DNA of 64,000 nucleotides from a virus (IMGVR_UViG_3300044678_002717:9600-73599); one strand, 5' to 3'; counted from the stretch's first letter, positions 14,541 through 54,531 are shown. Made by a program: numbers and translations. Notes: a model not told the origin generated them from the sequence alone.

Positions 14541-14731
14541 ACAGCATCACTCCAAGTACCTTTTCTATTCCAAAGAACTCTAAATAAATTAGATAAGGTT
14601 TTCACGGTAACCTTTTTAATTTCATCTTCTGTAAACTTATCTTTTACAATATTTTTAATCTCTTTTTCGATAAAAGGTTTCAATTCTTTTACTATTTCCC
14701 TTTTTAAAGATTCCTGTTCCTTATTAGTCAT
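14537..14731 (-). CDS. Small late hypothetical protein
   Basis: Late motif variant ACTAATTA upstream. Confidence 0.7.
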   Translation of the reverse strand: MTNKEQESLKREIVKELKPFIEKEIKNIVKDKFTEDEIKKVTVKTLSNLFRVLWNRKGTWSDAV

Positions 14732-33847: not shown

Positions 33848-33945
33848 GGCCTTGTAAGTAAATGGATATACTGATTGCCTTCTCATTCCATTCTGAGGAA
33901 TGGAGAGAGAAGCAATTCTTCTAGGTTCGATTCCTAGCGAGGCTA
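33848..33945 (+). tRNA. trnR: tRNA-Arg(TCT) with a 26-nt insertion in the anticodon loop
   Basis: GGCCTTG/CGAGGCT, D arm AGTA-AATGGATA-TACT (A20), ATTGC/GCAAT, CTAGG-TTCGATT-CCTAG; loop is 33 nt. Confidence 0.8.
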
Positions 33946-36728: not shown

Positions 36729-37547
36729 ATGAAAGAAGCATACCAATATCATCAGACAGTAAACAAACTAAGAACATTTTTCCAAAAGAAAAACTTCATT
36801 GAAGTACCAACACAATCTTGCTTATCAATCTTAGCAGCTTGTGAAAACCCTCACTCAATAACACAATTTGAATATGTCAATCAAATTTGGCCTCTTCCAC
36901 AGACAGGGCAAATGATTTTGGAGGAAAGATTATTAACTAACCCAACTTGGGAAGGTTGTTTTTGTGTGTCAACATCTTATAGACAAGAAAAAAATCCAAT
37001 CAAAGGTAGACATGAACTTATCTTCCCAATGTTTGAATTTGAATCTAAAGGTACAATGAAAGATATGCTTCAATTAGAAGCTGAACTTTTAGAACATCTT
37101 GGATTTGATAAACCAATCGAAGTAAATTATGATGATGTTTGTCAAGAATATGGTGGTGTTGAAATTCTTGAAAACGAACATGAAACAAGAATGTGGGAAG
37201 AAAAAGGTCCTGTGGTATCTTTACAAAACTTTCCATTAAGAACTAATCCATTTTGGAATATGCAACATAATGATAACGGAATCTTTAATAAAGTTGATGT
37301 TATCCTTTATGGTCAAGAAACAATCGGTTCTGCTGAAAGAAGTTCTGATGTAGAAAAAATGAGAGAAATGTTTTATACCATTGAAAATGGAGCATACTCA
37401 CAAAAATTATTTGAACTCTTTGGAAAAGAAAGGGTAGAAAAAGAATTGGAAGATTTCTTCTCTCATGATTTCTTTGAAAGATTTGGTGGAGGAATAGGTA
37501 TGACTAGAATGGCTAGAGCATTAAAACTAAATGGTTCTATCATTTAA
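36729..37547 (+). CDS. Class II aminoacyl-tRNA synthetase catalytic-domain paralog (Asn/Asp/Lys type; asparagine-synthetase-like)
   Basis: FIEVPT, LPQTGQ, SYRQE..RH..FPMFEFE, ETIGSAER, GGGIGMTR; no anticodon-binding domain. Confidence 0.8.
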   Translation: MKEAYQYHQTVNKLRTFFQKKNFIEVPTQSCLSILAACENPHSITQFEYVNQIWPLPQTGQMILEERLLTNPTWEGCFCVSTSYRQEKNPIKGRHELIFPMFEFESKGTMKDMLQLEAELLEHLGFDKPIEVNYDDVCQEYGGVEILENEHETRMWEEKGPVVSLQNFPLRTNPFWNMQHNDNGIFNKVDVILYGQETIGSAERSSDVEKMREMFYTIENGAYSQKLFELFGKERVEKELEDFFSHDFFERFGGGIGMTRMARALKLNGSII

Positions 37548-40277: not shown

Positions 40278-40354
40278 GTAGCCCCCACACCTATAGGGGG
40301 GTCGGGAGGGGGGTGGCTATAGGGGGATACAGGGGGAGGGGGTATACCCCCCCT
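40278..40354. other. G/C homopolymer island (six G tracts on +), downstream of a minus-strand promoter
   Basis: G6,G3,G6,G5,G5,G5 then TATA-C7; -7 box at 40355-40362. Confidence 0.85.
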
Positions 40355-40433
40355 CAAAGATAAGTAATAGTTTTGAGACTACCAAATTTATTTTAAAATA
40401 AACTTACATAAATCTTACATACAAAAAAAGCAA

Positions 40434-40847
40434 TCATTGCTGATTGCTTTTAATAAGACCATGTCTTTGCAATACCTTTTCATTCCATTTCCAATTGGTT
40501 TTTGATTTGGTATTCTTATTGAAAGAACTATTCCCAAAGTTTACGAATACCTGATTGGTATCGGTATTGTATTCCATTGCTGTATTTTTGTACAGATTAG
40601 CATCCCATTGCCAAATCGAGAAAAAGGAATTAGAAAAATCAATTGCTTTGATTTCCAAAACACCATTTTCAGAAATCCTTGTTTCGGTTACTTGAAACAC
40701 TTTGTAAATGTCTTTTGACTTTTTAGCATTTGGATTAACCTTGGTAATGCAAGACCAACCATATGGCTTGCCATTGAAGAAATGTGGCTTAGTAAGTTCT
40801 TCGCCACACATGGTACAAAAACAAAAGGAAGAAGCGGAGGTCTGCAT
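40434..40847 (-). CDS. Early protein with CxxC zinc-finger-like N-terminus
   Basis: Start corrected (MQTSASS); CTMCG...YGWSC. Confidence 0.7.
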   Translation of the reverse strand: MQTSASSFCFCTMCGEELTKPHFFNGKPYGWSCITKVNPNAKKSKDIYKVFQVTETRISENGVLEIKAIDFSNSFFSIWQWDANLYKNTAMEYNTDTNQVFVNFGNSSFNKNTKSKTNWKWNEKVLQRHGLIKSNQQ

Positions 40848-41107: not shown

Positions 41108-41341
41108 TTACTTACACATTGCTTTCAGTTCAGCTTTGATTGCTTTGGCTTTTTCGCCTTTCCAAGTTGAAGCATTGCATAAGAAATACAACACAACACT
41201 TTTACCACTATCAAAGTAATAGTCATCGGTAATGTAGGTTAATTGCGCCATAGCGTCTAAGTAAGGCTTTGCAGCAAAGTTTACCTTTGCCCAATCTTTG
41301 CGGATTTCAGAAGCGATTTGATAAAGAGGTCTGTGTGTCAT
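41108..41341 (-). CDS. Early hypothetical protein
   Basis: Own promoter and terminator; AKPYLDAM..YFLCNASTWKG. Confidence 0.8.
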   Translation of the reverse strand: MTHRPLYQIASEIRKDWAKVNFAAKPYLDAMAQLTYITDDYYFDSGKSVVLYFLCNASTWKGEKAKAIKAELKAMCK

Positions 41342-41400: not shown

Positions 41401-41631
41401 TTAATTTAAACTATTTTCAAATTCGATTTCCGCACATTGAAAATCATCATCCGATATATATTCAACTATTTTTCCGTCACGCATATAGTATTCCTTATTA
41501 GGTTTAGAAATTATAGTTTGTGTAGGTGCTTTGAACCAATCCTGATTTAATAACCAATCCTGATAAGATTTAGGTGTTGATAAAAAATCCTGACCTTTAT
41601 ATTTTCCGAATGCTAATTTGAAATTATTCAT
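41401..41631 (-). CDS. Early protein with FGKYKG..PxSY..WL motif (DUF3820-like)
   Basis: Start corrected; motif at N-terminus. Confidence 0.7.
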   Translation of the reverse strand: MNNFKLAFGKYKGQDFLSTPKSYQDWLLNQDWFKAPTQTIISKPNKEYYMRDGKIVEYISDDDFQCAEIEFENSLN

Positions 41632-41742
41632 GTTTTTTTGTGTTAGTGTTTCTTCCTGATGACAATACAAAGGTAGTAAAATAATTTGAATTTGCAAGTG
41701 GTAAGCGAAAATAAATTAAATTTTTTTTCTTTTTTTTTAAAA

Positions 41743-41804
41743 GACAAGCTACCCCCGATTAACCTTCCCTTCTTTTCGGGCTTCTACCATAGTGTTTCAA
41801 CGGC
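41743..41804 (-). ncRNA. Structured sRNA family, copy 1
   Basis: Promoter box 41809-41816; core GTAGAAGCCC-GAAAAGAA-GGGAAGGTTAATCGGGGGTAGCTTGTC. Confidence 0.75.
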
Positions 41805-41895
41805 ATAACAAAGGTGGCAAAAAGAAATGAGAAATGCAAATTTATTTTAAAAAAAAAGGTAGCCATTTCTGACTACCTTTGAAAGGCTTTTTGGT

Positions 41896-42369
41896 TTACC
41901 CTACCTTAATGATATTGCTTTCTTTCGGGCAAATTACCAAGGTGCTTTTACCCATTTTTTCAGCATCAGAAGCGGTAAGGTAGCTTTTAAAGGTTTCCTT
42001 ACTGATTTCCACACCATCGGCAAAGTATTGAACTTTGAGGTGGCAATTTTCAGTCGGGTAAAGCCGAATGTACCTATTGCCGTTGTGGGTAATTGTGTAG
42101 GGAAAGTGTTCCCATACACCCCAAGGTAAAGAACCAACTTCGCCCCTTGTACCATCGGCAATGCCTTCAAGTACAGGTTTTAGGTTTGCATAGTCAATAC
42201 CTGCCCTAAACACACCTTCTGTGCGCTTAGTAAGTTTGACTTCTTTGAAAGCCGCTTTTGGCTTTGCTTCGGAAACAAAGGTAGCGTTAATAAACTGACC
42301 TTTGCAATTAAAGAAGCGTTCTGCCACTCCCGACAGACCGCTTGGCACTTGGAGTGTTTCGTTTTCCAT
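41896..42369 (-). CDS. Early hypothetical protein (leaderless candidate)
   Basis: LPWGVW..FPY.ITH.G..YIRLY; ATG 4 nt after the -7 box. Confidence 0.8.
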   Translation of the reverse strand: MENETLQVPSGLSGVAERFFNCKGQFINATFVSEAKPKAAFKEVKLTKRTEGVFRAGIDYANLKPVLEGIADGTRGEVGSLPWGVWEHFPYTITHNGNRYIRLYPTENCHLKVQYFADGVEISKETFKSYLTASDAEKMGKSTLVICPKESNIIKVG

Positions 42370-42449
42370 AAGACAAAGGTGAGAAAAAGTAACGAGAAAA
42401 AAAAGTCTTTTTTTGCAAAAAACTTACATTAAATCATGTAAGGTATTTT

Positions 42450-42519
42450 AAAAAAAAAAGGGCAAGCTACCCCCGATTAACCTTCCCTTGTTTCGGGCTT
42501 CTGCCACCTCGATGATGAC
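42450..42519 (-). ncRNA. Structured sRNA family, copy 2
   Basis: Promoter box 42524-42531; conserved core; T-run. Confidence 0.75.
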
Positions 42520-42613
42520 AATACAAAGGTATGCATTTCCAATGACATTTCCAAATTTAATTTAAAAAAAAGGACTGATATAAATCAGCCCCTCAAATTT
42601 GGTTTTCTCAGGA

Positions 42614-42820
42614 TTATCTTGTAAAGATAAATCCGTTGTGGATTGGATGCCAAGCACCTGTTTTCCGCACTAAGGTTTTTACACCTTGGCAAGTAATAAA
42701 GCATTCAGTTAATTGGTTGTTTTGGATATACTTTACAACCTTTGCTTGGGTTTCAGTCATTGACTTTGCCTGAAGTGTGAACCTTTTGCCGTTATCGAAT
42801 TGAAGTTTGTAAGTGAACAT
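42614..42820 (-). CDS. Early hypothetical protein
   Basis: Own promoter and terminator. Confidence 0.75.
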   Translation of the reverse strand: MFTYKLQFDNGKRFTLQAKSMTETQAKVVKYIQNNQLTECFITCQGVKTLVRKTGAWHPIHNGFIFTR

Positions 42821-42937
42821 ATCTTGTTGTTTTTAATTGATATGCGAAGGTATGTGTTTTCAATGACATTTCCAAATTTAATTTAAAAAAAAGGGTAGCC
42901 ATTTCTGACTACCTTGCTGATTGCTTTGCTTATCAGA

Positions 42938-43315
42938 TTAAATGAAATCTGATTTCTCTTCCCATTTCTTTTGGGCAAAGGCATTGCCTTCGATATCATC
43001 ATTGGCAACCACCAAACCTGTAACTTTGGTTCTTCCTTCGCCAAATTTGGCTTCCCAAAGGTATGCATTGGCTTCCACAATCCTTTCGTTTGAGAAAGCC
43101 ACACCGCATTTGTAAATGCCATCTGACTCAGGTGGCATACCATACCACTTGAATTTATCCCAACCACCAAGGGTTGATGATTCGCTATCTAATGTGCCGT
43201 GCAAATACACCCAAGGTGTATAAGACAAAACAACAAGGGTATTCTTACCAAAGGTAGCCATTGGTTCGCCTGACTCCATTAGAGTAGGGAAGATTAATTT
43301 AGGGGAGTTTGACAT
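42938..43315 (-). CDS. Early hypothetical protein
   Basis: Own promoter, hairpin leader and terminator. Confidence 0.75.
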   Translation of the reverse strand: MSNSPKLIFPTLMESGEPMATFGKNTLVVLSYTPWVYLHGTLDSESSTLGGWDKFKWYGMPPESDGIYKCGVAFSNERIVEANAYLWEAKFGEGRTKVTGLVVANDDIEGNAFAQKKWEEKSDFI

Positions 43316-43456
43316 ATGCGAAGGGGGTTAAGAGTGCCATCACCGTGATGACAATACAAAGGTAGTAAAATAAATTGAATTTGCAAGTGGTAAGTGAAAA
43401 TAAATTAAAAAAAATGGAAGTATTTCTACTTCCATTCTGATTGGGTTTGCTTTAGG

Positions 43457-43750
43457 TTATTCTATTTCAGAAACATCGTAACCCATTTCTCTTAGCTTTT
43501 CGATAATGCAGCGAGGCAAGGCAAATACACCATCGTAATCAACGATTGTCATTCCTTTAAACCATATGCCACCTTCAGCATACCATTCATCACCTCCGGT
43601 CTCTACATCGTATATTTCAAACCAACCATAATCATCGGAATTGATTCCAATGGTAACCTGAAGTTCGATATCGTTTTGCTCTTTAATTGTGCCAAACGAG
43701 TTTTCAAGTGAAAGACTTTCGGTGGCGATAAATTCAATTTCCATTTTCAT
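43457..43750 (-). CDS. Early acidic hypothetical protein
   Basis: Start corrected; DYDGVFALP. Confidence 0.75.
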   Translation of the reverse strand: MKMEIEFIATESLSLENSFGTIKEQNDIELQVTIGINSDDYGWFEIYDVETGGDEWYAEGGIWFKGMTIVDYDGVFALPRCIIEKLREMGYDVSEIE

Positions 43751-43828
43751 AAGTGTTATTGTTTTTAATTGATATGCGAAGGTATGTATTTTGAATGAGA
43801 CTACCAAATTTATTTTAAAATAATTTCC

Positions 43829-44023
43829 TTATACCATTTGCTCTAACATATACCGAATGCTTTCAAGTTTATCTCTTTCTATATCAATTTCTCCACAAGA
43901 GGTTTGTGCAATCCAAGTATTGCTTCGATATTGTTTCATTATATTTACTTCTTTCCCATTTACTATGGTCGTATAATCACCACCACCTTGCTTGTATGTT
44001 TTTTTGAACTTTAGAGATGCCAT
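43829..44023 (-). CDS. Early hypothetical protein (MASLKF...)
   Basis: Start corrected to follow the promoter at 44050. Confidence 0.7.
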   Translation of the reverse strand: MASLKFKKTYKQGGGDYTTIVNGKEVNIMKQYRSNTWIAQTSCGEIDIERDKLESIRYMLEQMV

Positions 44024-44087
44024 TGTTTTTGTTGTTTTTAATTGATATGCGAAGGTATGTATTTTGAATGAGACTACCAAATTTATT

Positions 44088-44237
44088 TTAAAATCTTTTT
44101 GGGCCACTACACCTTGCTGAATGGGTTTGATTCCAACCACGCTTATGTGGATTCTTTTGAGCATGGTAACCGATTCTATTATCCACCGCACAAGATGCAA
44201 GGCAAACAAGGATTAAAAGCGCAATTATGTTTTTCAT
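44088..44237 (-). CDS. 49-aa lipoprotein
   Basis: MKNIIALLILVCLAS|C lipobox; not in ORF track. Confidence 0.65.
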   Translation of the reverse strand: MKNIIALLILVCLASCAVDNRIGYHAQKNPHKRGWNQTHSARCSGPKRF

Positions 44238-44356
44238 TTTACCGCAATTAAGATGATTTTACAAATGATTATAAATATTCCGAATGAAATACCCACAAAA
44301 GTGAATGCATCATAAAACATATTCATTCTACGCTGTTGTTTAAAGAAGTCTTCCAT
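44234..44356 (-). CDS. 40-aa membrane peptide
   Basis: MEDFFKQQ... with C-terminal TM helix; ATGA overlap. Confidence 0.55.
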   Translation of the reverse strand: MEDFFKQQRRMNMFYDAFTFVGISFGIFIIICKIILIAVK

Positions 44357-44408
44357 TGTTTTAGTATTTAATTTGATGTGTGAAAGATTTGATATTTCCA
44401 AATTTATT

Positions 44409-44516
44409 TTACCAAGGTTCTATTTGACCAATATATTCAACAAATTTAATAGCTGTGTAGCACAACATACCAACAATGGCAATGACTACAAGGGTTTCGA
44501 TTAATGTCTTTTTCAT
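44409..44516 (-). CDS. 35-aa peptide resembling a type IV pilin N-terminal helix
   Basis: MKKTLIETLVVIAIVGMLCYTAIKFVEYIGQIEPW; own promoter at 44540. Confidence 0.6.
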   Translation of the reverse strand: MKKTLIETLVVIAIVGMLCYTAIKFVEYIGQIEPW

Positions 44517-44646
44517 ATTCTTAATGTTTTAATCTGATACAAATATAAGTGAAAGATTTGAGACTACCAAATTTATTTTACTTCAAACATAAAATTTATT
44601 TTAAAATAAATTTGGAAATATCATTTCCTTTGCATACATTTGTATT

Positions 44647-44718
44647 GTCTTACAGCGAATGGGGCAGAAGCCGGAGAAAACGGAAGGTTCATCGCAGGTA
44701 ACTTGTCCTCTTTTTTTT
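44647..44718 (+). ncRNA. Structured sRNA family, copy 4
   Basis: Promoter TTTGG..TACATTTG (44635); CCG/CGG compensatory pair; T-run. Confidence 0.75.
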
Positions 44719-44742
44719 ATATATGGGCAAAAAAAAATGCCC

Positions 44743-44886
44743 TTAGAAGGGCAATTCAATCTTTTCTTCGATTGTCAGAGGGCTTTCTTCGATTTCCTCT
44801 GTGGCTTCCCTGATTAGGTTTCTTGCCATTTCCATAATCATTGCCTCATTTTCAAGTTCTTCGATGCTGATGCGATAGTCTGTCAT
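44743..44886 (-). CDS. 47-aa acidic peptide ending ELPF
   Basis: MTDYRISIEELENE...; own promoter at 44909. Confidence 0.6.
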   Translation of the reverse strand: MTDYRISIEELENEAMIMEMARNLIREATEEIEESPLTIEEKIELPF

Positions 44887-44946
44887 AATTGTTTTGTTTT
44901 TGATGATACAAATGTAATACGGATTTCTGATATTTCCAAATTTAAT

Positions 44947-45180
44947 TTAAAATTTTGTTTCAGCATAAAACTGCTCATAAGCGTGTGTATATTTTTTATC
45001 ATCAAAATAAACATCACCATAACCCAATCTAACACCAAAGGTAATTGCCTTTGCGGTTTGAGCATTCTCATAAGGTTTGATAAATTGTTTGTAAAAATCT
45101 AAATCAGATTGAGTAATTTGCCGACCATTATCTAATGATTTCTGAATTTCGCTGATGATAAGTTCTACTGCTGTTGTCAT
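44947..45180 (-). CDS. Early hypothetical protein (MTTAVE...)
   Basis: Start corrected; leader identical to the previous cassette. Confidence 0.7.
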   Translation of the reverse strand: MTTAVELIISEIQKSLDNGRQITQSDLDFYKQFIKPYENAQTAKAITFGVRLGYGDVYFDDKKYTHAYEQFYAETKF

Positions 45181-45236
45181 AATTGTTTTTGTTTTTGATG
45201 ATACAAATGTAATACGGATTTCTGATATTTCCAAAT

Positions 45237-45347
45237 TTATTTAAAAAAACTTTGGATAATTAGTGAAGCCACAAAGGTCAGGAACATATTCCGTAAAGCC
45301 TTCTTTTGGTCAGATGGCATATTCATTAGGTCTTGAATGTCTTGCAT
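45237..45347 (-). CDS. 36-aa membrane peptide
   Basis: MQDIQDL...; stop lies inside the next promoter repeat. Confidence 0.5.
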   Translation of the reverse strand: MQDIQDLMNMPSDQKKALRNMFLTFVASLIIQSFFK

Positions 45348-45464
45348 TTTGTTGTTGTTTTAATTTGATAATGTAAAAGTATGGCAAAGATTTGATATTT
45401 CCAAATTTATTTTAAAAAAAAGGACTGATATTTATCAGCCCTTCAGATTTGGATTTGTCAGGAT

Positions 45465-46337
45465 TTATGCTAACAAGGTAGCAAGTTCATTTACCAACTT
45501 GAAAGCATCATCGGTTATCTTTTGATTACCACCTAAAAGGTTTCCATAGGCATCAGTACTGAACTTTTTGTGGGTTGTGAAGTGTGTTACTCCGTTGAAT
45601 GCACCGAATAAGTTCATTCCCAAATCATTGGTTTCCCTTGTAAAGGATTCCATTAGGTCTGCTTTGCGCCTTCCGGTTGATGATGGCAAGATATTCTCTT
45701 TCAGCAACTTTTCATCAATGTTGAGAAGTCGGTTTGCAAGGCCATCCAAAATGGCATGGTCAATTTCAATTTCGGATAGCTTTTTGAGTTGCAATGCTTC
45801 CCTTTCCTTTTCTTCCCTGAAGCCTTTTACAAGGTCAATAAACATTTCAATTCGGAAGTCTTGATTCTTTGTATGGCGAACCTTCAGACCTTGCATAACC
45901 CTGCCCCAAGCATTGTGGCAACGAAGTAGAATGTTTACAGAACCCACAAAGATTGGTGTTGTACCATTGTGGGAATTACCGAAAACAAGGTAGTTTTCTG
46001 ATGGCAAACCCAAATGTTTGTGTACCATATCATCTGTTGCTTTCAGATAGGCAAGTACCTTTTCACCTTCCCTGAATTCAGCAAACCCTTCCAAAGCATA
46101 ACCACTTGCTTCAGACAATTTGTAAGCATAATCTACAAATGCTGAATTCTTTGTTTCCTTGTAGGTTGCATTGGTCAGGTGCAAGGTTCTACCATTGTCA
46201 GACCTTTTCAGGGCAACATAATCATCTTCAGGTACATATAGACCTGCCTTGTTGATTGTCATTGGTGTATGCCTTTGAACTTCCCAATTTAAAGAATCCT
46301 TAAAATCCTTTACTGCATTACTTGTGCTTTTTGCCAT
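45465..46337 (-). CDS. DUF932/DUF945-family protein
   Basis: LNWEV, NSHNG, LRCHNA, VRHT, FGAFNGVT. Confidence 0.8.
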   Translation of the reverse strand: MAKSTSNAVKDFKDSLNWEVQRHTPMTINKAGLYVPEDDYVALKRSDNGRTLHLTNATYKETKNSAFVDYAYKLSEASGYALEGFAEFREGEKVLAYLKATDDMVHKHLGLPSENYLVFGNSHNGTTPIFVGSVNILLRCHNAWGRVMQGLKVRHTKNQDFRIEMFIDLVKGFREEKEREALQLKKLSEIEIDHAILDGLANRLLNIDEKLLKENILPSSTGRRKADLMESFTRETNDLGMNLFGAFNGVTHFTTHKKFSTDAYGNLLGGNQKITDDAFKLVNELATLLA

Positions 46338-46409
46338 AATTGTTTTGTTTATTATTTATTGTTTGATGATACAAAGGTAAACGAAAGATTCGACAATTCC
46401 AAATTTATT

Positions 46410-46652
46410 TTAAAATAAACTAATATGAGTGGCTTGTACTTCTTTCCACAAAGAAAGGTGTAATTTACCCAATACTGATAAATTAACACAATTTGGACTT
46501 TCATCAACTTTAATAGTTTCATTATCTTTGGGTAAAGAAATGTAACCAAGGCAATCTTTTGGGTTGCTATAAAGACTTATGGAATAATCACTTTCCATAA
46601 TTGCATACCTTTCGATTACTGACTGAGGGATTTGACTTAGGATGTTTTGCAT
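46410..46652 (-). CDS. Early hypothetical protein
   Basis: Cassette structure. Confidence 0.7.
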   Translation of the reverse strand: MQNILSQIPQSVIERYAIMESDYSISLYSNPKDCLGYISLPKDNETIKVDESPNCVNLSVLGKLHLSLWKEVQATHISLF

Positions 46653-46696
46653 AATTGTTATTGTTTGATTACAGAGGCAAATGTATAATGAATATT

Positions 46697-46891
46697 TTAA
46701 TTTTCCAAATTTATTTTAAAATCTTTGCAAAAAAGTTCAAACTCTTTATTTGGGTCAATCTTTTCACCCAATCCAAAATAATGAATCAGATACTTTGCAA
46801 AGGCAATCTGAATGTTCCTTACTTCCTGATTAGGATTTACCATTGCATCTGATAGATGCGACTGAATAACCATGCTGACTTGTACTTTCAT
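46697..46891 (-). CDS. Early hypothetical protein
   Basis: Start corrected (MKVQVSM); cassette structure. Confidence 0.7.
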   Translation of the reverse strand: MKVQVSMVIQSHLSDAMVNPNQEVRNIQIAFAKYLIHYFGLGEKIDPNKEFELFCKDFKINLEN

Positions 46892-46974
46892 ATTTTCTTG
46901 TTGTTTGATTACAGAGGCAAATGTATAACGAATATATTTAATATGCAAATTTATTTTAAAATATTTTTATATAT

Positions 46975-47045
46975 AAAAAAAAGGACAAGTTACCCCCGAT
47001 TAACCTTCCCTTCTTTTCGGGCTTCTGCCATAGTGTTTCAATGAC
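46975..47045 (-). ncRNA. Structured sRNA family, copy 3
   Basis: Promoter box 47050-47057; nearly identical to copy 1; T-run. Confidence 0.75.
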
Positions 47046-47149
47046 AATACAAAGGTAAGTAAAAGAAATGATATTTCCAAATTTATTTTAAAAAAAATTC
47101 CCTCCGAAATTCAGAGGGAATTTTCAAATGAATCATATGTCCTAAACTT

Positions 47150-47413
47150 TTACATTTCCAATAGCTTTTGAATTGCTTCTTCAATTTGTTCTTCTGACTG
47201 CCAACCAAGTATTTCATCGTGTTCTGATAGCATAATAAATTCGGGATTTCCTTTATGCCAAGCAGCCATTTCAAATGAATTTCTGCCATTGCCATACAAT
47301 CCTGTTCCTCCCACAATGGAAATCATTATTCCGTTTGGTAGTTCGTGCAATGCCTGTACTGCATCGGGCATCTTATTTGCGTGGGGCTTGAAAACTAAAT
47401 CTTGAAATGTCAT
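47150..47413 (-). CDS. Early hypothetical protein
   Basis: MTFQDLVFKPH..PNG..ISIV..YG...FEMA. Confidence 0.75.
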   Translation of the reverse strand: MTFQDLVFKPHANKMPDAVQALHELPNGIMISIVGGTGLYGNGRNSFEMAAWHKGNPEFIMLSEHDEILGWQSEEQIEEAIQKLLEM

Positions 47414-47476
47414 ATGTTTTTGTTTTTTGATTACGATGTAAATTACGGAATAATAATCGAGAATTGCAAATTTATT

Positions 47477-47800
47477 TTAAAATTTATTGAATCCTTTTTC
47501 TTCGTACTTTCCTGCCAATGTTTTAGCAACCAAACCACTAACAGCAAAACCAAGCGGAATCCAAATCATCGTTTTTTGTGTTTTACCTAAATGGTAACCT
47601 AATATTGCACTTGCAAAAGCACCTGCAACAAGACCATCACCAATGCCATTTAAGACCTTTGCTTTGGTAAGGTTTAATTTGATTTCCCTTTGTACTGAAT
47701 CCTTTCTTTGCTTACAAGGGTTCATACAAGTGTTGTAATTGGTTTGAGCCATTGCTGAACCCGAAACCATTAGTGCGAATGCTATTAGTGTTTTTTTCAT
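47477..47800 (-). CDS. Secreted/membrane early protein (leaderless candidate)
   Basis: Signal SAMA|QT; two C-terminal hydrophobic helices. Confidence 0.75.
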   Translation of the reverse strand: MKKTLIAFALMVSGSAMAQTNYNTCMNPCKQRKDSVQREIKLNLTKAKVLNGIGDGLVAGAFASAILGYHLGKTQKTMIWIPLGFAVSGLVAKTLAGKYEEKGFNKF

Positions 47801-47876
47801 ATGACAAATGTATGTAAAATTAAATTAAATTCCAAATTTATTTTAAAAAAAAAGGGAAGATTTCTCTTCCCAAATT

Positions 47877-48056
47877 TTATTTTGTTTTCTCTGTTAAATT
47901 TAATAATTCTAATACTTCTTCAATTTGCATTTGCAAATACTCCTTTGTAATGATGGAGTTTTTAGGAAAGTTTTCCTTTTCAATAAGGTCAATGTAATGA
48001 CCTAATGCTTGACCAATCACATACTTGTGAAACCCTGTTAATGCTACTTTTTTCAT
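47877..48056 (-). CDS. 59-aa early protein
   Basis: MKKVALTGFHKY...; own promoter; below the track cutoff. Confidence 0.6.
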   Translation of the reverse strand: MKKVALTGFHKYVIGQALGHYIDLIEKENFPKNSIITKEYLQMQIEEVLELLNLTEKTK

Positions 48057-48166
48057 TTTGTTTTTGTTTTAATTTGATGTTACAAATGTAATACGAAGAT
48101 TTTAATTTTCCAAATTTATTTTAAAATAAATGGGCTGATTTTTCTCAGCCCAATTTAAGTTATTGA

Positions 48167-48664
48167 TTATGAGTGCATATCAACAAACACAAACCAAATT
48201 TTGTCGCCATCGGTTGTTGAATGTGTTAGGTCTGTAAAACCGCATTCATCATATTTGTAAGAAAAGAAACAATCATCTTTCATACAATCAAAAGGATTTT
48301 CTCTAAATGGATGTGCTTCGGATAAATGCTCCGCATACTTTGACAATGACCATAGTTCGTGTGAATCCCATTCAGTTAAATTAAAGTTGCCTTCTGCAAA
48401 TTTATCTTCTGCAATTTTACCATACCAACTTGATTTAATCCATCCATTCACACATTCATTGATTTGCTCAATGGTAGCAATATCGGTATCTTTGGGTTGG
48501 TATCTTCCATCCCCTGCATTGTAAACTTCATTATCTTCCGATACTGCACCACATATAGTTCGCCAATTATTTTCATTACCGAAATCCATTATTAGGATTT
48601 CAACTTCTTTACAAGCCTGTTCTCCCGAATCAGCTTTTACTTTTACTAAATGTAAGTTATGCAT
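48167..48664 (-). CDS. Early hypothetical protein
   Basis: MH start and DMHS end; cassette structure. Confidence 0.8.
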   Translation of the reverse strand: MHNLHLVKVKADSGEQACKEVEILIMDFGNENNWRTICGAVSEDNEVYNAGDGRYQPKDTDIATIEQINECVNGWIKSSWYGKIAEDKFAEGNFNLTEWDSHELWSLSKYAEHLSEAHPFRENPFDCMKDDCFFSYKYDECGFTDLTHSTTDGDKIWFVFVDMHS

Positions 48665-48931
48665 ATTGTTTTTTGATTACGATACAAAGATAAGTAAAAG
48701 AAACTTAATATCCAAATTTATTTTGATTTCTTTTTTGCTCATTGCGGTCATACTTCTTTTTATCCTTACCTACCTTTGTGGTAAAACGAGAATCCAAACC
48801 CGAATCCCTTTTAAGGATTTCCCTTTTGATTTTGCCGTAATTGATAGTGTTACTTGTCATTTTGCTTTTGTTTTTGATGCTACAAAGGTAAGTAGGATAA
48901 ATGAGAAAAACAAATTTATTTTAAAATAATT

Positions 48932-49126
48932 TTAGTCTTCAATCTTCTTTTCAAGTATGTAAAAGAAGTAACAGACAATTCCCATTGGTATTCCCATTAC
49001 AAACCAAATGATTGCGAACATATCCCAATTAGGTTTTGCACCTGATTCTTCTGCAAACTTTACCATTGTGGGAAGTAAGAGCCACAAAGCCATTATTGTG
49101 AATGATAAATAAGTGAACTTTTTCAT
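48932..49126 (-). CDS. Two-TM small membrane protein
   Basis: Start corrected. Confidence 0.7.
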   Translation of the reverse strand: MKKFTYLSFTIMALWLLLPTMVKFAEESGAKPNWDMFAIIWFVMGIPMGIVCYFFYILEKKIED

Positions 49127-49467
49127 AATTGTTTTTTGATTTTGATTACGATACAAATGTAAGTGAAAGTTTTGACAATTCCAAATTTATTTTAATTTAT
49201 TTTTCTCTTTTAATTCCTCCATTAAAAGAATCAAAAATAAAATAAATGAGAATCCAAATATAAAACTCATTACAATAATATTTCCAATATCCTGAAGGCA
49301 AAAAAGAAAAAAGGATGAGGAAAGACAAGCCATACCAATAAGAATCAATGCGATGTTTTTCATAATGTTACAAAGGTAAGTAAAAGATTTTAATTTTCCA
49401 AATTTATTTTAAAAAAAAGGCAACCATTTCTGATTGCCTTATTCTTAAAGTCTACTTTTATTTTAGA

Positions 49468-49869
49468 TTAAAGTTCGTTTGGGGCTGCTTCTTTAACAAT
49501 CACACGAAGAACCGAAGCATTGAGGCGAGAGCCTTCTCTGTTCACCGCATCAATCACGATTGAGAATGCGATGTTTGAGAACCTTTTCTTTCCCGAAAGG
49601 ATTGCATTGGCAATAGCACCATTAACCAACTTATCCTTACGAAGCGGAAAATCGGAGTGAGGGAACGAAATTTGCGCTTTGCCATCATTGGCTTGTGCGT
49701 AATCAATCGCAGCCTTCATCTTGTCGAACACGGCTTGTACTGCCGGACTTAGGGTTTTTCCACCCCTTGCTGAACGGATGTTTTCATCAAAAGATTGAAC
49801 TTCGATGTTTGCAACTTGTGCGGTAACCTCTCCCGATTCCTGCACATTAGACTTAGATTTGTTTGACAT
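49468..49869 (-). CDS. Early hypothetical protein
   Basis: Start corrected; visibly higher GC than the core genes. Confidence 0.75.
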   Translation of the reverse strand: MSNKSKSNVQESGEVTAQVANIEVQSFDENIRSARGGKTLSPAVQAVFDKMKAAIDYAQANDGKAQISFPHSDFPLRKDKLVNGAIANAILSGKKRFSNIAFSIVIDAVNREGSRLNASVLRVIVKEAAPNEL

Positions 49870-49944
49870 AATCTTTATTGTTTTTGTTTGATGATGCAAA
49901 GGTATGTAATTGAAATGACTTTTGCAAATTTTTTTTCAACTTTT

Positions 49945-50217
49945 TTAATTCATGCAAATTTGATTCATTTTGGTTGCCCAAAACTTGGCAACAAATTCCC
50001 AAACCATATCCGCATAATAAGGAGTACCATTGTCGCAAAGGAAATAGTAAATATCATTTTCAGTAAACAGATTGAAATTATCTGTAATGTATTCTCTGAT
50101 TACTTCTTTGGTATTCCAATCCATAAAGGCAATGGATAAAATGTTTTGAGCATTGTCATAATTGACTTCGATGATTCCACCGATTACATACTCTCCAATT
50201 CTGAATGTCTTTTTCAT
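49945..50217 (-). CDS. Early hypothetical protein
   Basis: Start corrected (MKKTFRIGEY). Confidence 0.7.
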   Translation of the reverse strand: MKKTFRIGEYVIGGIIEVNYDNAQNILSIAFMDWNTKEVIREYITDNFNLFTENDIYYFLCDNGTPYYADMVWEFVAKFWATKMNQICMN

Positions 50218-50346
50218 ATCATTTGTTTTTGATAAGACAAAGGTATGTAATTGAAATGACTTTTCCAAATTACAATGAAAAATAAATGAAATATTTTTTT
50301 TTAAAATAAATTTGGAAATATCGAATCTTTCACTTACTTTTGTATT

Positions 50347-50420
50347 GCATTACAGATGATGGTGTAGAAGCCCGATGCAAGGGAAGGTTCATCGCCTGTA
50401 ACTTGTCCTTACTTTTTTTT
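50347..50420 (+). ncRNA. Structured sRNA family, copy 5
   Basis: Promoter TTTGG..TACTTTTG (50335); TTACAGATGATG pairs with CATCGCCTGTAA; T-run. Confidence 0.75.
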
Positions 50421-50487
50421 AGTGCAATGCAAAAAAAATTCCCGACACTTTTTTGTCGGGAATCCTAAATTTTGTCGGGAATGATTT

Positions 50488-50772
50488 TTAAATCATCCTC
50501 AAGAAATCCGATGGATTCCAATGACCATTCTCTTTTTTGAAAGTCTCAAGCATCTTCTTGCAGGTTTCGTGGCTATCCTGATTGCGAAGGTCATGGCGAT
50601 AGTCATCAGAACCCACAAACTCAATCCATTTCAAACATAGCTTTGTGAAGGACTGCTGCAAAGTGCGATGGTCTTTGCCCATTTCGGTAATAAAACCCTG
50701 ATGGTCAGAAGAAAATGAATTTACGAAGTTTGACATTTCGTTTGCGAGGTGTTTTGCTTTATTGTTTTCCAT
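50488..50772 (-). CDS. Early hypothetical protein
   Basis: HRTLQQSF..DLRN; start corrected. Confidence 0.75.
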   Translation of the reverse strand: MENNKAKHLANEMSNFVNSFSSDHQGFITEMGKDHRTLQQSFTKLCLKWIEFVGSDDYRHDLRNQDSHETCKKMLETFKKENGHWNPSDFLRMI

Positions 50773-50870
50773 ACTTGTTATTGTTTGATGATACAAATGT
50801 AAATAAAAGATTTTAATTTTGCAAATTTATTTTAAAAAAAATGGGAGGAACAATGTCCTCCCAAACAATG

Positions 50871-51173
50871 TTAAGCATTTAAAAGTGCAAGAACTTCTGT
50901 TTTACCTTGCAAACAACTTTCTTCATTAAATCCTCCAATATGCCATTCAATCTTTTCATTCATTTCCAATGGTCTGTATTCTTTCCAATCATAAATTGTA
51001 AACACATCACCACTTTCGGTTTCTAAAGTAAAATCAAAATTTGATTTATCACTCCCATCATTATGAGAATAAAAAGAATTTGGGAAAAGGTCAATAAGTT
51101 GTTGAGGTGTTGCTTTAAATACAACACTATAAAAACTTGTACCACCTGCTGATTTTTCTGTGTGTTTTGCCAT
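50871..51173 (-). CDS. Early hypothetical protein
   Basis: FTIYDWK..WHIGG. Confidence 0.8.
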   Translation of the reverse strand: MAKHTEKSAGGTSFYSVVFKATPQQLIDLFPNSFYSHNDGSDKSNFDFTLETESGDVFTIYDWKEYRPLEMNEKIEWHIGGFNEESCLQGKTEVLALLNA

Positions 51174-51236
51174 TTGTTTTTTGATTTTGATTACGATACA
51201 AATGTAATATGAATTTTTGACTTTTGCAAATTTATT

Positions 51237-51449
51237 TTAAATAAATAAACTAAGTTCTTGTAACTCACCAACATTACCTTCCAAGTGCATACACATTAAT
51301 GCATCATCCATTGTAGCATTTTCGTATTTGAAAGATGATTCTGCCAAATCTACTTTAAGGAAATTCTTAAAAGTATCATCCCAAGAATTGTATAAAAACA
51401 AATCATTGGTGTGTGTGTAAAAACCAATTACTTTAATTTCTTTTTTCAT
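51237..51449 (-). CDS. Early hypothetical protein
   Basis: Start corrected. Confidence 0.65.
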   Translation of the reverse strand: MKKEIKVIGFYTHTNDLFLYNSWDDTFKNFLKVDLAESSFKYENATMDDALMCMHLEGNVGELQELSLFI

Positions 51450-51576
51450 TTTGTTTTGATTTTGATTACGATACAAATGTAATATAAGTTTTTGACATTT
51501 CCAAATATATTTTAAAAAAAATCCCTCCGAATATCAGAGGGAATTTAAAACTAATATATTATGTTGATTATCATCT

Positions 51577-51870
51577 TTAATCGCCAAAATAATTTAGGCG
51601 AAAATGTTTTTCATCACCAATAGTTTTGGAAATAAAGTTTACTTCCTTGCCATATTGATTTGTTCCTTTATATGCAATGAGCCAATTAAAAGAATGTTCT
51701 TTTAGTTCTTCATCAATTAGTTTTCTCACTTGACCTGCAATTTCAATAGGGAATACAAGTTCTGTAATTCTTTTTCCTTGCACAAGATTGTTTTTAATTG
51801 AATCCATTGCAATTTTAAAATGATGCTGAATCATTAAATCTTCTGCTGATTTGTTAAATTTTAAGTCCAT
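51577..51870 (-). CDS. Early hypothetical protein
   Basis: Second gene of a two-gene cassette. Confidence 0.7.
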   Translation of the reverse strand: MDLKFNKSAEDLMIQHHFKIAMDSIKNNLVQGKRITELVFPIEIAGQVRKLIDEELKEHSFNWLIAYKGTNQYGKEVNFISKTIGDEKHFRLNYFGD

Positions 51871-51875
51871 AGTTT

Positions 51876-52043
51876 TTATTTTTGTTTTAATTCTTTTTCA
51901 ATCCATTCAATGATTGTTATCATATCATCAAAAGATTCTCTACCTTCTTCTGTTGTACAATCCCAAGTACCATTCAATCCTTCATTGCAACTCATTTTGA
52001 GTACGGCAAGTAAGTCAAAAACTTTTTTCATATTATTTTCCAT
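51876..52043 (-). CDS. Early hypothetical protein
   Basis: Start corrected (MENNMKK). Confidence 0.65.
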   Translation of the reverse strand: MENNMKKVFDLLAVLKMSCNEGLNGTWDCTTEEGRESFDDMITIIEWIEKELKQK

Positions 52044-52178
52044 ATTTTTTTGTTGTTTGATTATGATACAAATGTAAGTGAAAGTTTTGAGATTTCCAAA
52101 TTTATTTTCAAAAAAAATCCCTCTGAATTTCAAAGGGATTTTACCTAAATAATCAATGAAAAAAACAACAATTAAACA

Positions 52179-52436
52179 CTATATCTTTCCAATGTTTTCA
52201 AGTACATAGTCTTGAACAAAGTCATCAACTTGATTCTTAATGTCATCATCTTCCAATATAGATTCATCACCATTAACAACTTCCCAATTTATTTCGGTAA
52301 AACCAAAATTGGGTTCATCATCATACTTGACATTGAGTTCCAAATCATACTCATTACCATCTTTTTCAATGGTTAGGTCAAGACCAATTACAACCAATGT
52401 GCTAATCACATCTTTGTTTGTTACTTTAATATTCAT
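52179..52436 (-). CDS. Acidic early protein
   Basis: D/E-rich; own promoter. Confidence 0.7.
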   Translation of the reverse strand: MNIKVTNKDVISTLVVIGLDLTIEKDGNEYDLELNVKYDDEPNFGFTEINWEVVNGDESILEDDDIKNQVDDFVQDYVLENIGKI

Positions 52437-52489
52437 TTTGTTTTTTGATTATGATGCAAAGGTAAAAAGAATTTCTGACATTACCAAAT

Positions 52490-52675
52490 TTATTTTACTG
52501 ATATTTCTAATACTTCTTGAAATGATGTTTCACAATCAAAGCAATCAAATTGCCCATACAATTCATTATCGAATTGACCAAGTGTTAATAAATCTTCGTT
52601 AATTGCTAATGGTTGGTAGTCAGTCATCCTGACATTTGTGCTACCACAAGACTTGCAATGAATTTTCTTTTCCAT
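52490..52675 (-). CDS. Zinc-ribbon peptide
   Basis: CKSC..CFDC. Confidence 0.7.
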   Translation of the reverse strand: MEKKIHCKSCGSTNVRMTDYQPLAINEDLLTLGQFDNELYGQFDCFDCETSFQEVLEISVK

Positions 52676-52687
52676 TTTTAATTAAAT

Positions 52688-52903
52688 TTAAGAACCACTA
52701 CTCATTAAAGCTGAATTGATTCTATTTGAATCAGCATTGTTTCTTTTCTTTCTTGCTTCTTCAATATGGTCTTTACAACCACCAATGAAAACTGAATTAA
52801 TAGCATCAGCAAAAGCAGGTGTATAGACAAAATACTTCTCAATGTCTTCTGACTTGCAGACACAACATTGAACAACATTACCATAATAATTTGTTACTTT
52901 CAT
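52688..52903 (-). CDS. Zinc-finger-like peptide
   Basis: CCVC..CKDH. Confidence 0.7.
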   Translation of the reverse strand: MKVTNYYGNVVQCCVCKSEDIEKYFVYTPAFADAINSVFIGGCKDHIEEARKKRNNADSNRINSALMSSGS

Positions 52904-52956
52904 TTTGTTGTTTGATTACAATACAAATGTAAAACGAATTATTGACTTTTCCAAAT

Positions 52957-53277
52957 TTATTTTACTAATTCATTTAAAATAATATCTTGAATTTCAAATT
53001 CGGTTTCATCATCAGTATCAATGCAGTTCTTTACAAAACCTTCTTGAACTAATTTATCTACAATCCTAATGGCAATATCTCTGCAATCATCAAGAAACTT
53101 TTGTGCTTCTTTTTCAGTAGCGAAATACTTTCTATTAGGTGTATGTAATTCAAAACTTACATCATCCCAACAAGAACAAACTATTTCACCATTGTCAATG
53201 GTATAATAATCATCACCTTCATCAATCCACAAACCTTTTCTTCCATAAAAGGAAGGGATAAAACCTTGCTTCTCCAT
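52957..53277 (-). CDS. Early hypothetical protein
   Basis: Cassette structure. Confidence 0.7.
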   Translation of the reverse strand: MEKQGFIPSFYGRKGLWIDEGDDYYTIDNGEIVCSCWDDVSFELHTPNRKYFATEKEAQKFLDDCRDIAIRIVDKLVQEGFVKNCIDTDDETEFEIQDIILNELVK

Positions 53278-53279
53278 TT

Positions 53280-53471
53280 TTATTTTAAATAAGGTGATGA
53301 ATCTGATGCTACATTTAGTATTTGGTCTACACCTTGCTCTGCAACAAGTTCTTCAAGCATTGGCTTGGTGTATGTTTTGTAAACTAAATCTTCTGCTTCA
53401 GAAGGCGAGTTAGCTTCAATAAGCACTTCAGCGTGATAAGTTCCGGTTATCCAAACTCTGTAAGTTTCCAT
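53280..53471 (-). CDS. Early hypothetical protein
   Basis: YRV..IEANSPSEA. Confidence 0.7.
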   Translation of the reverse strand: METYRVWITGTYHAEVLIEANSPSEAEDLVYKTYTKPMLEELVAEQGVDQILNVASDSSPYLK

Positions 53472-53572
53472 ATTTTTTGTTGTTTTGATTACGATACAAA
53501 TGTAAAACGAATTTCTGACTTTTCCAAATTTATTTTAAAAAAAATGGGGGAACTTAATCCCCCAAATTTAAT

Positions 53573-54001
53573 TTAATTTTCTGATTCTTCTTTCAAAGCC
53601 TCTTGATACATTTCTTCGGTTTTGTCATTGTGTTCTATAATAGAAATGATTTCATCTTGAATTTCATCGAAGTATTCTTCAATTTGATTTTCCACATATC
53701 CCTTTAAGGAACAAGCATCAACTTCATACGAATCAACTTCAATGGTATTTCCATATCGAATTTCAAATTCAAATTCGTTTATATCAAACATATCCGAATC
53801 ATTGAAATCTACATTGCGAATTGTTTTAAGAATACCATCTTTGATTTTGTTTAACCATTCCTTTGATGGATAACCTGCTTTGGTTTCTTCAACCTTTGGC
53901 TTTTCTTCAACCACCATATTAAGGCAGTTGATTACATCATCTTTGGTAAAAAGGCTACCAAGTGAATTTTGAACTTGAGAAATTACTTCTTGTTTTTTCA
54001 T
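53573..54001 (-). CDS. Acidic early protein
   Basis: SLFTKDDVI; D/E-rich. Confidence 0.75.
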   Translation of the reverse strand: MKKQEVISQVQNSLGSLFTKDDVINCLNMVVEEKPKVEETKAGYPSKEWLNKIKDGILKTIRNVDFNDSDMFDINEFEFEIRYGNTIEVDSYEVDACSLKGYVENQIEEYFDEIQDEIISIIEHNDKTEEMYQEALKEESEN

Positions 54002-54062
54002 TTTGTTTTTTGTTTTAATGATTATAGGACAAATGTAAGTGAAAGTTTTGAAACTACCAAAT

Positions 54063-54386
54063 TTATTTTAAATAATCTGCAATAAATGAAAGTTCATTTA
54101 CGCTTAGTACATAACAACTAAAGAAGCCACTTTCACCAAAGTTTTCACCAAGTGCTTTGCCGTGAAAATGAATACTTTCACCAATTCTTTCAACTGCAAC
54201 AATAGAATAACGAACAATTTCATCATATCTATTTTCACAACTTACTTGTGGTAATTCGGTAAGAAGCCAATCATCTTCACAATTTTCTTCTGAAATTAAT
54301 TCAATTTTTTCACCATCCTTTAATTTAGTAAGGATGTAGTCTTTGATTTCTTGCTCAAGAGCAATAACTTTTTCTGAGAAATTCAT
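54063..54386 (-). CDS. Acidic early protein
   Basis: First minus-strand cassette; stop inside the next promoter repeat. Confidence 0.75.
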   Translation of the reverse strand: MNFSEKVIALEQEIKDYILTKLKDGEKIELISEENCEDDWLLTELPQVSCENRYDEIVRYSIVAVERIGESIHFHGKALGENFGESGFFSCYVLSVNELSFIADYLK

Positions 54387-54531
54387 TTTATTTTTGTTTT
54401 AATGATTACAGGTGCAAATGTATATGAAAGTTTTGAATCCACCAAATTTATTTTAAAATATTTTTTTTCAATTTAATTTGGAAATGTCAAATATTATGCT
54501 TTCCTTTGCATCATCAAAAACAAAAAACAAA

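Follow-up and report, generated by a model that had tools for sequence, protein, structure and literature searches.

Comparable small RNAs of phages and bacteria

Few phage non-coding RNAs have a known function, and the T4-type stable RNAs and the early small RNAs (sRNAs) of jumbo phages, which are small, early or abundant, are mostly without one; to our knowledge, no phage-encoded non-coding RNA has been characterised for phages of Bacteroidota. The family considered here is represented by five copies in a 64,000-nt stretch of viral DNA (hereafter the window), which makes up bases 9600–73599 of the 73.6-kb IMG/VR virus record IMGVR_UViG_3300044678_002717 (CheckV completeness 22%) and encodes a T4-type major head protein, portal, large terminase and DNA polymerase. 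The source is a large T4-like lake phage, for which we infer a host probably among the Bacteroidota; the best cultured relative of its capsid belongs to a Flavobacterium phage (38% identity), and closer capsid matches come from uncultured phages of 484–595 kb. Tentatively, and with somewhat less than even confidence, the five copies are read as paralogous genes for a small stand-alone RNA of this phage, about 65–75 nt long if its start is the G opening the first hairpin (P1) and its end the U-run. No described RNA family corresponds to it, and it turns up in many related phages that are uncultured; among phage-encoded sRNAs its unusual traits are its copy number, the existence of two classes, the fixed convergent pairs and the use of two promoter types to drive one RNA.

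When compared with the T4-type and jumbo-phage RNAs, which it resembles in size and presumed timing, the family differs in that each copy has its own promoter, that it is multi-copy and covarying, and that within the window it does not lie in a transfer RNA (tRNA) cluster. CsrB/RsmZ-type sponges are similar in that their hairpins show short purine-rich motifs and that high expression titrates a protein, but they carry many repeated GGA loops as against one module per RNA in the family, and their Rfam models match none of the copies. ToxI and phage pseudo-ToxI are likewise phage-encoded repeated RNAs used against a host system; ToxI units, however, are tandem direct repeats beside a toxin gene, whereas the copies described here are dispersed on both strands behind their own promoters. 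Finally, the lambdoid nut RNAs and the put RNAs of HK022 are, like the family, promoter-proximal hairpins in early transcripts, and the second hairpin (P2) looks like a small purine-loop hairpin; the family differs from them in being oriented independently of downstream genes and in forming convergent pairs.

Another relevant group is that of the RNA anti-CRISPRs (Racrs), which act on CRISPR systems. As described by Camara-Wilpert et al. (2023; PMC10651486), Racrs share with the family that both are short, phage-encoded, driven by their own promoter and located away from cas genes, with stoichiometric titration as the presumed action; no Cas family was found among the 29 window open reading frames (ORFs) scanned with Pfam. 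In contrast to Racrs, the family has a covarying 5' hairpin, a conserved 3' module and up to five diverged paralogs per genome, and a search of genome and metagenome contigs with an exact 20-base pattern found no CRISPR repeat resembling its core.

Five copies and their fold

The copies lie dispersed at 41.7, 42.5, 44.6, 47.0 and 50.3 kb, on both strands and 0.7–3.4 kb apart, so that five copies fall within 9 kb, each behind a consensus early promoter (a CAnn variant in copy 1). A sequence-only reading of the window had reported five cassettes with full promoters at these places, and all five were recovered by alignment and by a family covariance model, which, run with filters off on both strands of the window, gave them 66.3–79.2 bits, the next match (19.2 bits) being in a coding region. 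With the same model, no further strong copy was found in the whole 73.6-kb record; a weak match at 14590–14649 was rejected as lying inside an ORF. The core AAGGTKNATCG occurs exactly five times in the window against 0.04 expected, and AAGGTTAATCG, allowing one mismatch, six times against 0.86 expected, a count reached by none of 100 shuffles; the sixth core match, at 40732–40742, is inside an ORF and was not accepted as a further copy.

Copy 1 (41739–41804, minus strand; alignments, model match 41741–41804, 74.6 bits) consists, in order, of the P1 hairpin, AGAAG, P2 (CCC/GGG), AAGGUUAAUCG, GGGG, a tail, UUUU and nine A, and is preceded by a promoter at 41805–41845 (minus strand) that reads TTTG ... 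CAccTTTG, with a variant -7 motif. Copy 2 (42450–42521, minus strand; match 42459–42521, 72.0 bits) has a 17-nt P1 variant and a run of ten U, its promoter lying at 42522–42563 (minus strand; TTTG-N-TACCTTTG, site 42531). Copy 3 (44647–44718, plus strand; match 44647–44709, 72.0 bits) carries CCG/CGG in P2, C at the variable core base and a 4-nt variable block, CAGG, followed by eight U; it is found on the strand opposite to the flanking genes, with its promoter at 44603–44646 (plus strand; TTTG-N-TACATTTG, site 44635). Copy 4 (46975–47045, minus strand; match 46982–47045, 79.2 bits; promoter 47046–47089, minus strand, TTTG-N-TACCTTTG, site 47057) ends in eight U, directly followed by the next early promoter. 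Copy 5 (50347–50420, plus strand; match 50347–50409, 66.3 bits; promoter 50303–50346, plus strand, TTTG-N-TACTTTTG, site 50335) has C at the variable core base, the variable block CCUG and a run of eight U after it; it too opposes its neighbouring genes, and the terminator scan places a strong terminator, towards which it converges, at 50435–50466. The change from CCC/GGG to CCG/CGG, previously assigned to copy 4, is thus real but belongs to copy 3.

The early-type promoter has the form TTTG-N(about 20)-TAnnTTTG, which we take to be the Bacteroidota housekeeping promoter type. About 25 near-identical promoters (AAAATAAATTTGG...TAnnTTTG), mostly on the minus strand, front small ORFs at window positions 44500–54450, and nearly every small ORF between about 44.5 and 54.4 kb has its own promoter followed by a 15–30-nt A/C-rich leader. 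Because of this presumed promoter type the region is regarded as an early-gene array, and the location in such an array, claimed beforehand, agrees with the density of early promoters around the copies. All five copies have a promoter of the type of these roughly 25 directly upstream, and the G described at a common offset indeed follows the -7 motif at 5 nt in five of five alignments. Each window copy has a 95–98% identical counterpart in another contig, while the window paralogs are 67–92% identical to one another; since the flanking proteins of the counterpart contigs are about 36% to 100% identical, these contigs represent different phages. The five paralogs are old and individually conserved.

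To characterise the fold, an alignment was made of 81 distinct copies, each flanked by at least 45 nt, that come from about 50 phage loci of lake metagenomes and IMG/VR; they form class A of the family. The variable 5' segment forms a terminal hairpin, P1, that extends from the G 5 nt past the -7 motif to just before AGAAG, is 97.8% paired and shows compensatory, both-sided changes at all five pairs. G-U or U-G pairs occupy 94 of its 405 cells, and since these would be mismatches if read on the other strand, selection on this helix acts in the RNA of the sense strand. P2 is a 3-bp hairpin, paired in 100% of cells, whose inner pair also covaries (CG in 56, AU in 19 and GC in 6 sequences) and whose A-rich loop opens with GA and closes with AA in all 81 copies. 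For comparison, slid-partner controls for the whole structure are 33–42% paired. No change is seen in 81/81 class-A copies at AGAAG, at either of the outer P2 pairs or in AAGGUU-N-AUCG, yet these positions were fixed or required by the degenerate core patterns with which copies were collected. The seventh position of the 11-mer is free (A in 56, C in 21, U in 4) and varies even between orthologs. Predicted unpaired probabilities average 0.77 for AGAAG and 0.56 for the 11-mer.

This fold replaces the long 5'/3' hairpin with an AGAAG/AAG internal loop that had been proposed at first, since the latter is paired in 33.3% of cells, within the 27–41% of its own slid controls (1–3 columns, whole structure). 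The underlying complementarity, UUAC..GCGA/UCGC..GUAA, is genuine in copy 3 and has an analogue in copy 5, but it was misplaced in copy 4 and is a property of these individual copies rather than of the family. Because the variable 5' part folds on itself into P1, AGAAG and AAGG... are linkers between consecutive hairpins. Owing to a misalignment of the 17-nt and 19-nt P1 variants in the model-fitted alignment, RNAalifold retrieved no more than two pairs of P2 from it. No further helix emerged when mutual information was computed for all column pairs; inspection by eye found no pairing of P2 loop with tail, AGAAG with U-run or tail with P1 that is kept across the family, and self- or A/B-dimerisation (A and B being the two classes) through the quasi-palindromic GGUUAAUC is not kept across it either.

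Towards the 3' end two overlapping pairings can be drawn: GGUU(A) with (U)ARYU, columns 50–54 with 63–67, is 88.9% paired, and GGU with RYC, columns 61–63 with 69–71, has three inner pairs that are about 75–96% paired. Both change by one-sided transitions only and have predicted pair probabilities of at most 0.32, from which the 3' part appears weakly structured. These data bear on the idea of a small ribozyme or of an aptamer that binds a small molecule, such as a sponge soaking up a signalling nucleotide of the host, in which short covarying helices would keep invariant junction nucleotides in a compact fold. Aptamers and ribozymes typically have unpaired, invariant nucleotides set between helices that covary, and the two 3' pairings, both of which fit the variation, could make a pseudoknot; nevertheless, the idea is improbable, given the one-sided changes and low probabilities just mentioned, the consecutive arrangement of the hairpins without a closing helix, a one-nucleotide connector that would make the pseudoknot geometry doubtful, and the lack of a match to any Rfam riboswitch or ribozyme model at E≤10.

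Distribution, paired copies and orientation

With the degenerate core patterns, an IMG/VR contig of 170 kb proved to carry four copies and two further contigs, of 178 kb and 465 kb, one each (the latter two confirmed by a further check); 57 metagenome loci were matched as well. The covariance model (R1) yielded 93 matches of at least 47.7 bits in 56 sources, some of them duplicated by overlapping loci. Eight loci (L087, L092, L095, L098, L100, L117, L130 and L131) were discarded as chance matches without promoter or P1; they lie in coding-looking DNA, GC-rich in several, and five of them score 11–25 bits while three give no model match. One core-pattern scan of 185,579 prokaryotic species, with one genome each, returned a single chance match of 17 bits; blastn against 50,697 GenBank phage records gave only chance matches of 18–25 nt, and megablast of 16 kb gave none. 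As far as these scans reach, the family is restricted to phages.

No copy matches an Rfam 15 model at the gathering score or at E≤10, so that the novelty suggested from the sequence withstands this check. At the gathering score only tRNAs match; at E≤10, 21 weak matches occur over 41500–50600, none aligned to a copy in sense orientation, a few overlapping copies on the opposite strand or running out of flanking sequence. A tRNA-like nature is not indicated either, as ARAGORN and Rfam place tRNAs only at 33.7–33.9 kb and 63.8 kb. In the literature searched, mainly titles and the openings of abstracts together with passages of 10.64898/2026.10.21.760802, no description of the family was found.

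The same scans speak to the version of the effector proposal in which the core would be a solitary repeat unit that traps Cas proteins by resembling a CRISPR repeat of the host, and which is now very improbable. Type VI-B is a CRISPR system of Bacteroidota. According to 10.1101/092577, type VI-B repeats are 36 nt long, with complementary 5'-GUUG and CAAC-3' ends and a poly-U open loop; the family core, in contrast, has no such ends, and its loop is the A-rich one described above. Moreover, the 20-base core pattern was found in no array and matched the 185,579 genomes once, by chance (repeats with one or two differences would be missed), and the 57 metagenome loci are either behind phage promoters or isolated chance matches, never showing repeat-spacer periodicity. 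On the other hand, a short non-coding RNA placed right downstream of its own promoter in a phage, with dose being relevant, is what published Racrs are, and the study in PMC10651486, whose list of 2,103 viral solitary repeat units could bear on this explanation, found no type VI candidates.

Besides class A, 24 additional cores were collected, 21 of which constitute class B, defined by a different linker, the core AAGGUG-N-AUCG and a P2 of flipped polarity that covaries in its own right. Class-B copies score 18–33 bits, the same range as some chance loci, and are therefore recognised by promoter, P1, covarying P2 and fixed position rather than by score; a class-B pattern scan of IMG/VR gave three loci, none recognised by the model. 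The convergent partner of a class-A copy is a class-B copy or a divergent A copy (loci L105, L110, L112, L116, L119, L127, L134, L135, L093, L094, L106 and L139). In 13 of 13 A/B pairs the copies converge with a gap of exactly 19 nt between the model ends, and this spacer holds a conserved motif able to point either way. Read as one strand, a pair comprises P1, P2, a long imperfect central hairpin, and antisense P2 and P1. The window carries solitary class-A copies only; downstream of copies 3 and 5 no gene runs in the same direction.

Another recurrent promoter motif, TTGTWAGA-N15-GATATATTA, stands before the same P1-core in the L102 and G001 lineages (L102 1–10426; L083–L086, corresponding to G001 29.5–38 kb), which represent a sister lineage; there it also fronts the small ORFs of an equivalent array, with ORF starts that are often leaderless. 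Of the 16 motif sites in L102, four lie ahead of the RNA and 12 ahead of ORFs encoded on the other strand; all four L102 copies, and every copy at the four examined loci of G001, oppose the ORF array in strand. Whichever promoter type is present, P1 lies just downstream of it. Since the same P1-core sits behind a different promoter in these lineages, the RNA, and not the promoter, is the conserved part.

This position behind two promoter types is also one of the arguments against a DNA-level site, whether for protein binding or as a mobile palindromic element, and against a tiny peptide gene, explanations to which we give scarcely any credence. What can be said for them is that copy pairs of related phages form imperfect palindromes of about 145 bp and that copies 1 and 4 could, from their sequence, encode a 13-residue peptide. 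The G-U pairs, however, are heavy on one strand only; the conserved core measures 29 nt in 66 and 30 nt in 15 of the 81 copies, thereby shifting by one base; in 35 of the 81, each of the three sense frames contains a stop; and the would-be start codon position covaries as part of P1. No reading frame with a start codon is conserved across the 81 homologues, in line with the earlier observation that the cassettes share no ORF. The earlier proposal of an independently promoted, structured RNA family, rather than a peptide or a chance repeat, is thus borne out.

ORFs of 40–62 aa have been listed over the sRNA genes (46856–47044, plus; 44601–44759, minus; 41686–41808, plus; 50340–50468, plus). The first of these looks conserved in tblastn, because the RNA beneath it is conserved. 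Such small ORFs should not be annotated as genes, and the covariance model explains several spurious small ORFs in these genomes for annotators.

Proposed action, neighbouring genes and other features

Our best guess, held with less than even confidence, is that the family is a trans-acting, high-dose early RNA recognised by a protein. The five genes would be transcribed together with the roughly 25 small early genes, a co-timing suggested by their common promoter type; the hairpins would only present and stabilise the invariant purine-rich module, which a host or phage protein would recognise. The RNA's action would then be in trans and dose-dependent: as a decoy or sponge it would titrate its partner while the host is being taken over, or alternatively it would be the RNA subunit of an early phage ribonucleoprotein. 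Action in trans is suggested by the free orientation, by copies 3 and 5 being without codirectional genes, by the convergence of 13 of 13 A/B pairs and by the strong terminators that insulate the copies upstream; action by dose is suggested by the fivefold presence within 9 kb, with a consensus early promoter for every copy. A recognition module is preferred over a continuous antisense seed because the seventh base of the 11-mer is free and class B changes position 6 too.

Several observations weigh against this action. Single-sequence folding energies of the copies are the same as those of shuffles (z from -1.59 to +0.93). The 24 listed runs in which the region occurs are all lake or freshwater DNA metagenomes, with no RNA run among them, so that we infer the start, end and abundance of the RNA from DNA. 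The 87-aa protein encoded next to copy 4 (see below), tied to the RNA by adjacency, is without a recognisable RNA-binding fold or family. As to the 3' ends, that of only one of the five window copies passes the terminator scan (copy 2, site 42474–42458), and a U-run of at least five within 16 nt follows only 44 of the 81 copies; because of this, transcription of some copies may continue into the following gene, giving them a role in cis. Lastly, an invariant single-stranded stretch would also suit a base-pairing seed directed at a highly conserved host RNA.

The last point leads to a base-pairing riboregulator, in which AAGGUU-N-AUCG, perhaps with AGAAG, would be the seed, P1 would guard the 5' end and the 3' part would terminate transcription. 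Most known trans-acting sRNAs of bacteria and phages work in this way; a 5' hairpin with a 3' U-run (the 44 of 81 just mentioned) fits the usual sRNA anatomy, and the 11-mer, constant in the class-A set bar one position (though the search patterns demanded this), is predicted to be about half unpaired. This account is nonetheless unlikely. The centre of the seed varies even between orthologs, and class B differs at two adjacent positions; since the seed middle varies, a continuous duplex is not to be expected. No site complementary to the invariant stretch occurs in the 64-kb window. Furthermore, the variable positions 65 and 66 keep their pairing with G51 and U52 of the 11-mer (GC in 51 and GU in 28; UG in 41 and UA in 37), which suggests that some of the seed is occupied within the RNA itself.

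The 5' end of the RNA is placed by the fixed distance between promoter and P1, while the 3' end can be placed only tentatively. The U-run endings ascribed to all five cassettes are present after four of them, as runs of 8–10 U, copy 1 having only UUUU followed by nine A; after the 81 copies, an A-run is found in 18 and neither a U- nor an A-run in 19, mostly members of convergent pairs. Preceding genes end in strong terminators, which lie upstream of copies 1 and 2 and, in the case of copies 3 and 5, face the copy; between 41.5 and 50.7 kb the terminator scan lists 21 terminator-like sites against 6.2 expected. The element does not itself appear to be an intrinsic terminator or a simple 3' element, given that copy 2 alone passes the scan and that the conserved part is at the 5' end of the transcription unit.

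These features matter for a reading in which the copies work in cis at the level of transcription, be it as a structured leader transcribed from a tandem promoter upstream, as a nut/put-like antitermination signal or as a convergent insulator whose head-on transcription would stop read-through. Copies 1 and 4 directly precede the next early promoter without a convincing terminator, many copies face neighbouring genes head-on, and P2 may resemble the boxB-type hairpins of lambdoid phages. However, copies 3 and 5 and all copies at the L102 and G001 loci do not lie between a promoter and a codirectional operon, as nut and put do, and have no such genes to act on; convergent A/B pairs would run polymerases into each other; strong intrinsic terminators are already abundant in the region; and an insulator would need neither invariant linkers nor covarying hairpins. 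A cis role is hence rather improbable.

If the protein-recognised RNA acts in trans as proposed, its target can be narrowed only with much doubt. That the family is an undescribed RNA device for counter-defence or host takeover, in which early, high-dose RNAs trap a conserved host protein and do not mimic a CRISPR repeat, is a speculative and rather unlikely specification. The trapped protein may serve in defence, as a nuclease or sensor, or belong to the machinery of Shine–Dalgarno-independent translation or RNA decay in Bacteroidota, and the diverged paralogs together with the class of flipped hairpins may serve to cover variant targets. The family is abundant in lake viromes and sits in a gene class that holds host-takeover and anti-defence functions, and its short, defined and easily synthesised RNA is suited to pull-down and expression tests; if a partner were found, it would mean either a new RNA-based mechanism of takeover or anti-defence or a new phage ribonucleoprotein.

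Among the neighbouring small proteins, the 87-aa one (47150–47413, minus strand), whose gene lies immediately upstream of copy 4, is conserved beside RNA copies of other lineages more widely than any other neighbour and is thus a candidate partner by association. It has tblastn matches in 13 loci, in several of them about 0.1–1 kb from a copy, including the most distant subfamily. Its AlphaFold model, which is confident (predicted local distance difference test score 94), shows four strands and a C-terminal helix; the protein matches no family in Pfam, and its fold has no PDB counterpart at E≤0.001. A very basic 51-aa protein (48705–48860, minus strand), with 65–98% identity in 11 loci that include the distant G001 and L102, had no family found; it and a 77-aa protein (41108–41341), also conserved across lineages, are likewise candidate partners by association.

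Some further features of these genomes may be mentioned. At about 40290–40356 (minus strand), directly behind an early-type promoter (site 40362), the window has repeated CCCCC blocks broken by TATA, which stand out in an AT-rich genome and have the same folding energy as shuffles (z = -0.29). RNA-related functions elsewhere in the phage include a 272-aa protein resembling class II aminoacyl-tRNA synthetases (36729–37547, plus strand; PF00152, E = 8e-12) and a protein with DUF5661 and a nucleotidyltransferase domain (12335–13342, minus strand). In the loci L090, L097, L101 and L141, which make up a subfamily with CCA/UGG in P2, a tRNA-Trp gene is found about 0.2–1.5 kb from the sRNA. Finally, just after tRNA-Leu, a 98-nt stretch of the window (33848–33945, plus strand) matches the Rfam tRNA model at 46.3 bits without being called by ARAGORN, and may be a tRNA with an insertion or an odd arm.

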